Part shown: in pieces, positions 12,696 through 52,017 of the stretch
How positions within the stretch are numbered: position 1 is the first letter of the stretch
Layout: every line of letters starts with the position of its first letter
Translations under genes and position numbers: made by a program
Assembly: GCF_003790525.1 (NCBI RefSeq)
Contig: NZ_CP033635.1
DNA: 64,000 nucleotides
Reading direction: 5' to 3' (one strand)
DNA from: Escherichia coli
Lineage (GTDB): Bacteria; Pseudomonadota; Gammaproteobacteria; Enterobacterales; Enterobacteriaceae
Notes under the pieces: generated by a model
The model's database searches: none
The model's input: the letters and a program-made list of their open reading frames with translations, nothing else
Told to the model about the DNA's origin: nothing

Positions 12696-12807
12696 CCCCG
12701 GCTAGACCGGGGTGCGCGAATACTGCGCCAACACCAGGGAAATCTTGGCTGCGCCGTAAATTATTATGATGAGTTACAAGGGCACAGCACTGTTTTTCAG
12801 GCCGCAC
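12687..12807 (-). ncRNA. arcZ: small RNA ArcZ (RyhA/SraH), 121 nt, overlapping the arcB 3' end
   Basis: Reverse strand reads GTGCGGCCTGAAAAACAGTGCTGTGCCC...CACCCCGGTCTAGCCGGGGTCATTTTTT, matching the ArcZ sequence as I remember it, including its terminator hairpin. Confidence 0.85.
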
Positions 12808-31615: not shown

Positions 31616-32803
<1,188 letters not shown>

Positions 32804-32843: not shown

Positions 32844-34277
32844 CTAATTGTTCTGGTAAATATCTTTATACAAACGGCTTTCAAAACGTACCAACGGAAT
32901 ACGGCGATTACGCTGATCCGCCGGTTCTACTGCATAGCCAGAAAGATATTGTACAAACGCCATTCGTTGCCCGCTCGCCGTGGTAATGAATCCCGCCAGG
33001 TTATATACCCCCTGCAACGAGCCGGTTTTCGCTGAGACTTTGCCATCCACGCCCGCCTGATGCAGACCTGCACGGTACTGCAAAGAGCCGTCATAGCCCG
33101 CCAGCGGCAGCATAGAGATAAAGTTAAGTTCATTGTCGTGTTGGGCTATGTATTGCAGCACCTGCATCATGGTGGCGGGGGCAATCAGGTTATGCCGCGA
33201 AAGCCCTGAACCATCGGCAATAATGGTGTTACCAATATCGACACCGGCTTGCTGGCGCAGGATCTGACGCACGGCGTCCGACCCGGCCCGCCATGTTCCA
33301 GGCACATTGAAGCGCGCATGGCCGATCATGCGGAAAACCGTATCGGCAATCATGTTGTCCGACTTTTTCAGCATAATCTTAAGCAGATCGTGCAGCGGGG
33401 CCGACTGTTTACTGGCAACTACCGTTCCAGGTTCGTTAACTTGAGTCTGGCGCAGCAGTGTTCCGCTCCAGGTGATACCCGCCTGTTTTAACTCATCTTT
33501 CAGAATTGCCCCGGCATAGCTGGCACCATCCTGCACGGCAAAAGCCAACGGGAGCGGCTCAGAACGTTGTGGCAGGCATCCGGTCAGCGTAAAGCGGTTC
33601 AGGTCGCCTGGCACCACATCCAGCTCGCAGTATTGCGCTTCGGCAGAACCACGGGGGAGGGTGCGTACCTGGCTGAACATCGTAACGGGGTAATAAGATG
33701 CCACGCGTATAAAAGCCATATCACCAGGTTTTGGGGCACTATAGAGCGAGACGGAGAAACAGTTGCGGTCAACTATGGCGGCGGCAGGCGGAGCGCTAAA
33801 GCATTGTGTCATGTCATTCCATGGCCAGCCGGGGGCTTTATCGTGGCTGGCGAAAATGGAGGTATCTATCAACACATTGCCATCGATTTGGTTGACGCCA
33901 GATTTTTTCAAAGTCGCGACCATATTGCGAATATCCTGACGTTTTAACGTCGGATCGGCACCAAATCGCGCTACTAAGTCACCCTTAAGTACACCGTTTT
34001 CCACATTACCTTTGGTTTCAAGCGTCGTGGTAAAACGAAAATCGGGGCCGAGTTGAATCAACGCCGCCAGCGCAGTAATCACTTTCTGCGTACTGGCGGG
34101 CAGCGCCATCTGCTGACTGTGGTAATCAATAGCGGGGGCCGACGCGCCGACTTTTTGCACCATCAGGGCAAGGTTGGCACCAGCGGGGAGTTGAGTAATG
34201 TACTCATCAACATTTGCGGCCTGAACACTGAACGCTATACAGCTGGTCAATCCGATGATAAATCTGGAAAATCGCAT
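32844..34277 (-). CDS. dacB: D-alanyl-D-alanine carboxypeptidase/endopeptidase PBP4
   Basis: 477-aa ORF with signal peptide and STQK active-site motif. Confidence 0.96.
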   Translation of the reverse strand: MRFSRFIIGLTSCIAFSVQAANVDEYITQLPAGANLALMVQKVGASAPAIDYHSQQMALPASTQKVITALAALIQLGPDFRFTTTLETKGNVENGVLKGDLVARFGADPTLKRQDIRNMVATLKKSGVNQIDGNVLIDTSIFASHDKAPGWPWNDMTQCFSAPPAAAIVDRNCFSVSLYSAPKPGDMAFIRVASYYPVTMFSQVRTLPRGSAEAQYCELDVVPGDLNRFTLTGCLPQRSEPLPLAFAVQDGASYAGAILKDELKQAGITWSGTLLRQTQVNEPGTVVASKQSAPLHDLLKIMLKKSDNMIADTVFRMIGHARFNVPGTWRAGSDAVRQILRQQAGVDIGNTIIADGSGLSRHNLIAPATMMQVLQYIAQHDNELNFISMLPLAGYDGSLQYRAGLHQAGVDGKVSAKTGSLQGVYNLAGFITTASGQRMAFVQYLSGYAVEPADQRNRRIPLVRFESRLYKDIYQNN

Positions 34278-34396
34278 AATCTCGCGCTAACAACCTGGAA
34301 TCGAGCCGTCATACTACGGCGCAACGCCCTATAAAGTAAACGATGACCCTTCGGGAACTTCAGGGTAAAATGACTATCAAAATGTGAATTGTAGCT

Positions 34397-34431
34397 GACC
34401 TGGGACCTGTACCCGGGTCGGTATTTTTTTT
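34397..34431 (+). terminator. intrinsic terminator/attenuator in the greA leader (GraL-type leader RNA)
   Basis: gaccuggg / cccggguc 8-bp stem with one G-U pair, then 8 T's, about 95 nt upstream of the greA start. Confidence 0.6.
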
Positions 34432-34525
34432 GCTTCTGGTCCCGGTGAGGAGTTATGCCGGGCAGGCCGAACAGCCGGGGTGGGTGAAGACTTGCCCCAT
34501 CAGGAATATTCAAGAGGTATAACAA

Positions 34526-35002
<477 letters not shown>

Positions 35003-35043: not shown

Positions 35044-35068
35044 GGAAAAAGGCCGCTATGCGGCCTTT
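35044..35068 (+). terminator. intrinsic terminator after greA
   Basis: A run, aggccgc-tat-gcggcct hairpin, then TTTT. Confidence 0.7.
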
Positions 35069-35157
35069 TATCAACGAACAGAGCGTGGCATTTTGCTCTC
35101 CTGCCTGCGGAAAAACCCTCGTTTTACACAGCGAATGTGTGTAACTTTAGGATAATC

Positions 35158-41082: not shown

Positions 41083-41169
41083 GCCGAGGTGGTGGAATTG
41101 GTAGACACGCTACCTTGAGGTGGTAGTGCCCAATAGGGCTTACGGGTTCAAGTCCCGTCCTCGGTACCA
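41083..41169 (+). tRNA. leuU: tRNA-Leu (anticodon GAG), 87 nt with encoded CCA
   Basis: GCCGAGGTGGTGGAATTGGTAGACACGCTACCTTGAGGTGGTAGTG...GGTTCAAGTCCCGTCCTCGGTACCA; long variable arm, cloverleaf foldable by eye. Confidence 0.93.
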
Positions 41170-44951: not shown

Positions 44952-45028
<77 letters not shown>

Positions 45029-45150
45029 CTTTCCCTTAGAGTCCTTTTTCAAATATACTGTGAAGACTTCGGCCTTCGTAGTGGGATTTGAAAAAATCCT
45101 TCTGGAAAGTGCTCCAGACCGCAGTTGCGGTTATAGGGTTCAGTTATATA

Positions 45151-45175
45151 AAGCCCCGATTTATCGGGGTTTTTT
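45151..45175 (+). terminator. hairpin plus T-run between metY and rimP (partial terminator/processing site)
   Basis: aagccccga-ttta-tcggggtt followed by TTTTT; a second weaker hairpin plus T7 lies at about 45199..45217. Confidence 0.6.
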
Positions 45176-45234
45176 GTTATCTGACTACAGAATAACTGGG
45201 CTTTAGGCCCTTTTTTTATGTCTTGGGGGTGGGC

Positions 45235-49899: not shown

Positions 49900-49916
49900 G
49901 GTTTTTAGGGTTCCAT

Positions 49917-49986
49917 GCGGGATAAGGCGTTTACGCCGCATCCGGCATGGATTGCCTGATGCGACGCTGGCGCGTCTTATCAGGCC
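49917..49986. repeat. REP/BIME element (two inverted REP units) in the infB-rbfA spacer
   Basis: gcgggataaggcgtttacgccgcatccggca followed by gcctgatgcgacgctggcgcgtcttatcaggcc, both classic E. coli REP consensus sequences. Confidence 0.85.
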
Positions 49987-51460: not shown

Positions 51461-51826
<366 letters not shown>

Positions 51827-51842: not shown

Positions 51843-51870
51843 AAAAGGGGGCCTGAGTGGCCCCTTTTTT
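51843..51870 (+). terminator. rpsO intrinsic terminator
   Basis: aaaa-ggggcc-tgagt-ggcccc followed by TTTTTT. Confidence 0.8.
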
Positions 51871-51920
51871 CAAGCTGACGGCAGCAATTCACTGGAAACT
51901 AATGTATTGTTGCTATGAAT

Positions 51921-52017
51921 GATCTTCCGTTGCAGAGGTTCGCGCGGCTAATGAGAGGCTTTACCCACATTGGGCTGGGTTAGGGTTGTCATTAGTCGCG
52001 AGGATGCGCAGAAGATC
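51921..52017 (+). promoter_or_regulatory. long imperfect stem in the pnp 5' leader (RNase III autoregulatory processing hairpin)
   Basis: gatcttc (51921..51927) pairs with gaagatc (52011..52017) closing an about 95-nt structured leader; function assigned from knowledge of E. coli pnp. Confidence 0.45.

Follow-up and report, generated by a model that had tools for sequence, protein, structure and literature searches.

The hairpin and T-run preceding greA in the 64,000-nucleotide stretch of Escherichia coli DNA analysed here (the window) are almost certainly the GraL intrinsic terminator of the greA 5' leader, with the P1 and P2 transcript starts, partial termination and feedback by GreA that have been proposed for it. 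GraL is already published and experimentally characterised, and the window holds an ordinary copy of it with one extra T. The K-12 experiments cover promoters, termination, RNA release, efficiency and dependence in cis. The current work covers the identity of the locus, the fold, its conservation with covariation, and the lack of an antiterminator.

The element lies on the E. coli chromosome in the gene order obgE-dacB-greA-yhbY-rlmE-ftsH. The open reading frame list gives the surrounding genes as follows:

31631-32803, + strand: obgE
32844-34277, - strand: dacB, with its ATG at 34277, divergent from greA
34526-35002, + strand: greA coding sequence, 158 amino acids
35158-35451, - strand: yhbY

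The intergenic region between dacB and greA is 248 bp long. A 271-nt query covering it found a match in 5425 of 5426 complete E. coli genomes and was 100% identical to several of them, in which the neighbours are annotated as dacB and greA. In the annotated identical region of E. coli FDAARGOS_497, greA is WP_001148001.1. Elsewhere in the window, the Rfam gathering score is exceeded by ArcZ, two tRNAs, the rimP leader, naRNA4, the ribosomal S15 leader and SraG, all expected as normal for this region of E. coli. They lie at the following positions:

12700-12807, - strand: Rfam match
41083-41166, + strand: Rfam match
44952-45025, + strand: Rfam match
45117-45217, + strand: Rfam match
49916-49986, + strand: Rfam match
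51499-51613, + strand: Rfam match
51843-52014, - strand: Rfam match

A perfect hairpin, AAAAGGCCGC-TAT-GCGGCCTTTT, is found at 35047-35069 in the convergent gap between greA and yhbY, where A-runs and T-runs flank it on both strands. Judged by its sequence, it looks like a shared bidirectional terminator for the two genes; its Rfam matches, to STnc420 and STnc540, are weak and below threshold.

The terminator itself consists of two parts:

34394-34422, + strand: terminator hairpin, 11-bp stem and 7-nt loop (sequence, terminator scan, RNA folding, RF01769 structure, covariation)
34423-34435, + strand: A, U8 and GCUU, the zone of frayed GraL 3' ends (sequence, published 3' ends)

The 5' arm GCTGACCTGGG (34394-34404) and the 3' arm CCCGGGTCGGT (34412-34422) enclose the loop ACCTGTA (34405-34411), and the 11 stem pairs comprise 7 G-C, 1 A-U and 3 G-U. 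A34423 follows the stem, then eight T at 34424-34431, then GCTT at 34432-34435, so that the site has the makeup of an intrinsic terminator: a stem-loop rich in G-C pairs (7/11), one A and 8 U on the transcribed strand. In a consensus terminator scan the greA leader site ranked first, with 11 pairs and 7 GC. The hairpin folds at -19.6 kcal/mol, compared with -12.1 +/- 2.5 kcal/mol for dinucleotide shuffles (z -2.95; 1 of 200 shuffles as good), and its energy ranged from -18.6 to -19.6 kcal/mol across folding runs. The hairpin exceeds chance expectation. A sequence-only reading of the window had placed a strong hairpin with an 8-T run at 34397-34431, about 95 nt before the greA start. Hairpin and T-run are borne out, and the interval ends exactly on the last T; its start falls 3 nt inside the stem, which truly begins at 34394. 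From the end of the T-run to the greA ATG at 34526, 94 nt were measured.

The promoters and the first transcribed segment are located upstream of the stem:

34343-34371, + strand: greA P1 promoter (sigma70), -35 ATGACC at 34343-48, 17-nt spacer, -10 TAAAAT at 34366-71 (promoter scan, conservation, published start)
34354-34381, + strand: greA P2 promoter (sigmaE), GGAACTT at 34354-60, 16-nt spacer, TCAAA at 34377-81 (read from sequence)
34376-34393, + strand: unstructured 5' segment of GraL, +1..+18 from P1, folding at -0.2 kcal/mol (published numbering)

P1 scored 9 of 12 consensus matches in the promoter scan, and its sequence is strongly conserved among 104 distinct Enterobacterales sequences. 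The arrangement of P2, GGAACTT, 16 nt and TCAAA, fits the sigmaE consensus. Both motifs are present and identical to those of K-12, the strain for which promoter activity itself is published. There, P1 depends on sigma70 and P2 on sigmaE, with starts 11 bp apart (PMC2836576, Potrykus et al. 2010, NAR 38:1636). In the published numbering, the greA AUG is at +150, the 5' tail spans +1..+18 and the hairpin region +19..+48 (PMC6829880, Dylewski et al. 2019). Because the AUG is +150 and the window carries one extra T, the +1 of P1 was set at A34376, and that of P2 falls at A34387/88. On this scale +19 is 34394, the first base of the stem, and the hairpin region +19..+48 maps exactly onto 34394-34423. 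The U-tract and GCUU at 34424-34435 coincide with the 3' ends published as +49 to +59. The dinucleotides ApU and ApA primed P1 and P2, respectively (PMC2836576), in agreement with A34376-T34377 and A34387-A34388. The site therefore lies after the promoter region, as the sequence-only reading had proposed, with the P1 -10 at 34366-71 and the two starts at 34376 and 34387.

In K-12, the GraL terminator was described as an 11-bp stem followed by AU7GCU2, with a termination efficiency of about 60% in vitro and 66% in vivo (PMC2836576). The short RNAs are detected by northern blots, are released from immobilised templates, are unaffected by Gre factors, and have 3' ends scattered over about 10 nt (PMC2836576); they form arrays whose members measure 49-59 nt when made from P1 and 37-47 nt when made from P2 (PMC6829880). 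Together with the full-length match to an Rfam leader model described below, these arrays (PMC2836576, PMC6829880) uphold the earlier suggestion of a short leader RNA of the GraL type. The suggested coupling of greA expression to the terminator likewise agrees with the K-12 data: removal of the terminator raised the activity of a lacZ fusion about 3-fold (PMC2836576, PMC6829880), and GreA represses its own gene only when the GraL sequence is present in cis, irrespective of the promoter and of the region past +59 (PMC6829880). Autorepression needs catalytically active GreA and an additional helper factor. When GreA was overproduced in vivo, GraL rose and read-through fell, and when +1..+18 was scrambled or the hairpin arms were swapped, the response to GreA was largely lost and termination stayed (PMC6829880). 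In purified transcription, GreA was without effect on termination (PMC2836576, PMC6829880). The northern blot and the in vitro termination assay proposed as checks of the site are thus already published for the K-12 allele (PMC2836576), whose only differences from the present one are T7 in place of T8 and a single loop base. A literature search found no Term-seq data naming GraL, and the RNA-seq paper of Conway 2014 merely cites it.

Under the proposed mechanism, RNA polymerase would start at the overlapping promoters P1 (sigma70, about 34376) and P2 (sigmaE, about 34387), transcribe 18 (P1) or 7 (P2) unstructured nucleotides, and then meet the 11-bp GC-rich hairpin and U8. About two thirds of the polymerases would release RNA at many adjacent positions over the U-tract and GCUU, giving GraL arrays of about 37-60 nt, and the remaining third would read on through 94 nt into greA. 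In this way the terminator would hold GreA to about one third of what the promoters deliver. GreA would also repress itself in vivo at the terminator, where more catalytically active GreA would lead to more GraL and less read-through by way of the helper factor. Released GraL is also reported to act in trans, on the basis of overexpression data and a nudE target.

The window leader was aligned with those of five other E. coli strains. The locus, gene order, P1 and P2 sequences, +1..+18 tail, 11-bp stem and GCUU after the U-tract are identical to those of K-12 GraL; the copy here differs from it in having U8 instead of U7 and the loop ACCUGUA instead of ACUUGUA (C34409 here, T in K-12). A 37-nt query over the T-tract found an exact match in 197 of 5425 E. 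coli genomes; a further 5218 carry a single difference. T8 is a minority lineage allele, whose carriers include CFT073, Nissle 1917, ABU 83972, ATCC 25922, SMS-3-5 and an ST648 strain. A sequencing artefact was excluded, since the independent assemblies of CFT073, Nissle 1917, ABU 83972 and ATCC 25922 share T8. We infer that the T8 allele acts like the T7 allele; termination efficiency or the pattern of 3' ends could shift with the longer tract and the altered loop.

Conservation was examined by a scan of one genome per species with the promoter pattern AAAGTAAACGATGNCC-N6-GAACT, which lies outside the terminator. At least 120 loci were found in Enterobacteriaceae, Erwiniaceae, Pectobacteriaceae, Yersiniaceae and Hafniaceae, and a greA reading frame adjoins each one that had enough flanking sequence. 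Among the matches listed, 113 distinct leaders were aligned. The stem columns of this alignment are paired in 91.9% of cases, compared with 17.6-57% when the partners are slid by 1-3 columns; compensatory changes on both sides occur in 9 of the 11 stem pairs; and the covariation score was reached by none of 500 shuffles. RNAalifold independently finds the upper 8 stem pairs. A hairpin with a U-rich tail, defined as a hairpin of -8 kcal/mol or lower followed by at least 6 T within the next 10 nt, is present in 110 of these 113 leaders, with the stem starting 17-20 nt past the equivalent of the P1 start. Most genera among the matches listed have an interrupted U4CU4 tail, and unbroken runs of 7-9 U appear in Escherichia, Citrobacter, Salmonella, Yersinia, Atlantibacter and Hafnia. 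In the 5' tail, ATCAAA is at least 90% conserved in the same alignment. The comparison of 2010 covered the leader in four species (PMC2836576), and it is greatly widened by this order-wide conservation and stem covariation.

Two exceptions among the 113, the leaders of Tenebrionibacter intestinalis and Ca. Sodalis endolongispinus, retain the hairpin (-17.4 and -20.3 kcal/mol, respectively), and their U-tract is lost or weak, the region reading AAGACTGCTG in the former and CTCCTTTTGC in the latter. Both lineages are insect-associated, and their terminator may have decayed.

The Rfam model RF01769, "Enterobacteria greA leader", matches 34308-34429 on the + strand, directly upstream of greA and on the same strand, over its full length (model positions 1-124 of 124; 125.8 bits against a gathering score of 60; E 3e-24). 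The terminator hairpin stands at the 3' end of the model, as in the window. The model also carries three hairpins 5' of the terminator, at 34308-34378; its first approximately 68 positions (34308-34375, about two thirds of it) are upstream of the mapped P1 start. Among 104 distinct sequences, no compensatory changes were found in these 5' helices, and variable positions break pairs, such as pair 2-39 with 31 C-A and pair 58-70 with 25 U-U; for helix 1, whose 3' arm was fixed by the search pattern, this comparison tests only half of the helix. The 5' hairpins were therefore rejected as RNA structure, being upstream of the mapped start and without compensation. The segment 34308-34375 is strongly conserved in primary sequence, for example in ATACTACGG and AAAGTAAACGATGACCC. 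These observations suggest that it is promoter DNA, or divergent control DNA on the dacB side, and not a series of RNA hairpins.

The 5' hairpins of the model bear on the possibility that the leader is a classical attenuator or riboswitch, in which an antiterminator alternates with the terminator (Naville and Gautheret 2010). In its favour, "a clear antiterminator structure" is reported for greA leaders in PMC2965389, and RF01769 draws three hairpins before the terminator. These hairpins, however, lie upstream of the P1 start at 34376 and hence outside the RNA made from P1 and P2, and their pairs are broken by uncompensated changes. The antiterminator of PMC2965389 is drawn in Figure 6 of that paper; if it uses the 5' hairpin region of RF01769, it would rely on sequence lying upstream of where transcription starts. 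The transcribed 18 nt form no competitor, and there is no conserved leader peptide: no reading frame occurs within the 18 nt before the stem, and the sole mini-ORF (34455-34487) sits downstream of the terminator. When the 3' arm is absent or forbidden, the leader before it (34376-34411) folds at -0.2 kcal/mol, compared with -18.9 kcal/mol for the terminator. An antiterminator was thus rejected, -0.2 kcal/mol being the best competing fold; since no competing fold exists in the transcribed leader, it has no built-in antiterminator and is not a classical attenuator or riboswitch, an alternative we consider very improbable. The same lack of a competing fold would suit a constitutive dampener, which takes away a set share of the transcripts that two very strong promoters make, with GraL as a by-product and no regulated decision. 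Termination efficiency is constant through growth and similar in vitro and in vivo (PMC2836576), and GreA does not act on termination in purified transcription, as this explanation would have it. Against it stand the rise of GraL and fall of read-through upon GreA overproduction in vivo, and the near loss of this effect with a scrambled tail or swapped arms. Moreover, the ATCAAA..G.AAA columns of +1..+18 are conserved at 90% or more, beyond what a bare terminator needs, in a stretch that overlaps the sigmaE -10. A purely constitutive role is accordingly regarded as unlikely, and feedback at the terminator is preferred.

GraL might also be mainly an independent small-RNA gene acting in trans, to which the terminator belongs, with read-through into greA secondary. 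GraL overexpression changed more than 100 transcripts and improved fitness, and scrambled GraL did neither (PMC2836576); nudE is cited as a trans target (PMC6829880). Yet no other promoter of greA is convincing, since P3 and P4 were judged processing products (PMC2836576), and GreA is therefore made by way of read-through. In the authors' own description GraL has a dual role, in cis and in trans, and the small-RNA explanation complements the leader terminator; as the main account of the element it is quite improbable. Finally, the 248-bp intergenic region is common to greA and dacB (ATG 34277, minus strand), and the hairpin could belong to dacB or have arisen by chance. But dacB is transcribed away from the hairpin, which cannot then be its terminator; TACAATTCAC, not a T-run, comes after the stem on the minus strand; and conservation and covariation rule out chance. 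The probability of this last explanation is negligible, and the GraL terminator of the greA leader remains the preferred reading. In description it can be likened to the leader terminators of other transcription-factor genes, such as those of rnk and of Bacillota greA (PMC2965389), with a premature intrinsic terminator between the promoter and a Gre-family gene.

Conserved structure was also found in the part of the leader that is made only upon read-through, and it is omitted from RF01769:

34432-34525, + strand: read-through greA 5' UTR, with the Shine-Dalgarno sequence AAGAGG at 34512-17 (RNAalifold, pair counts)

UUCUG at 34434-38 starts within the termination zone and pairs with CAGGA at 34501-05, just 5' of AAGAGG. 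It is nearly invariant, and its changes are one-sided only. This helix encloses hairpin A (34439-46/34457-63) and hairpin B (34477-84/34491-98), both of which show compensatory changes. Among 27 distinct Enterobacteriaceae sequences, RNAalifold and pair counts gave 87.7% pairing for the whole structure, compared with at most 60.8% when slid, and double changes in 11 of 19 pairs. In transcriptional fusions, GreA autoregulation does not need the downstream leader, as the NDS-lacZ construct shows (PMC6829880); therefore, if this structure has a role, it would concern stability, processing or translation instead. Positions 34434-34505 may include the published P3/P4 processing ends. It might be proposed that the read-through structure is a second control layer (mRNA stability, processing at the P3/P4 ends, or translation) and that, separately, the U8 allele (ST73-type, e.g. 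CFT073 and Nissle; ST648-type) shifts termination efficiency and hence GreA dosage; this proposal is tentative and, taken as a whole, rather doubtful.

The mini-ORF at 34455-34487, MPGRPNSRGG, was considered as a leader peptide and rejected: neither its start nor its stop is kept in E. albertii and E. whittamii, and Salmonella and Citrobacter have different frames there. A GAGGAG sequence resembling a Shine-Dalgarno motif stands only 2 nt before its ATG. The mini-ORF is probably not a gene.

The finding that RF01769 covers promoter DNA is relevant for refining that model, and the conserved downstream structure points to a stretch of the leader that merits testing. Order-wide covariation and the lack of an antiterminator are useful for hunting the missing accessory factor. 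GreA is a global fidelity and anti-backtracking factor, and its dosage matters because it competes with GreB and DksA for the secondary channel of RNA polymerase. The leader terminator is a known device that sets this dosage, with feedback, and the U7/U8 polymorphism bears on carrying the K-12 results over to uropathogenic strains.
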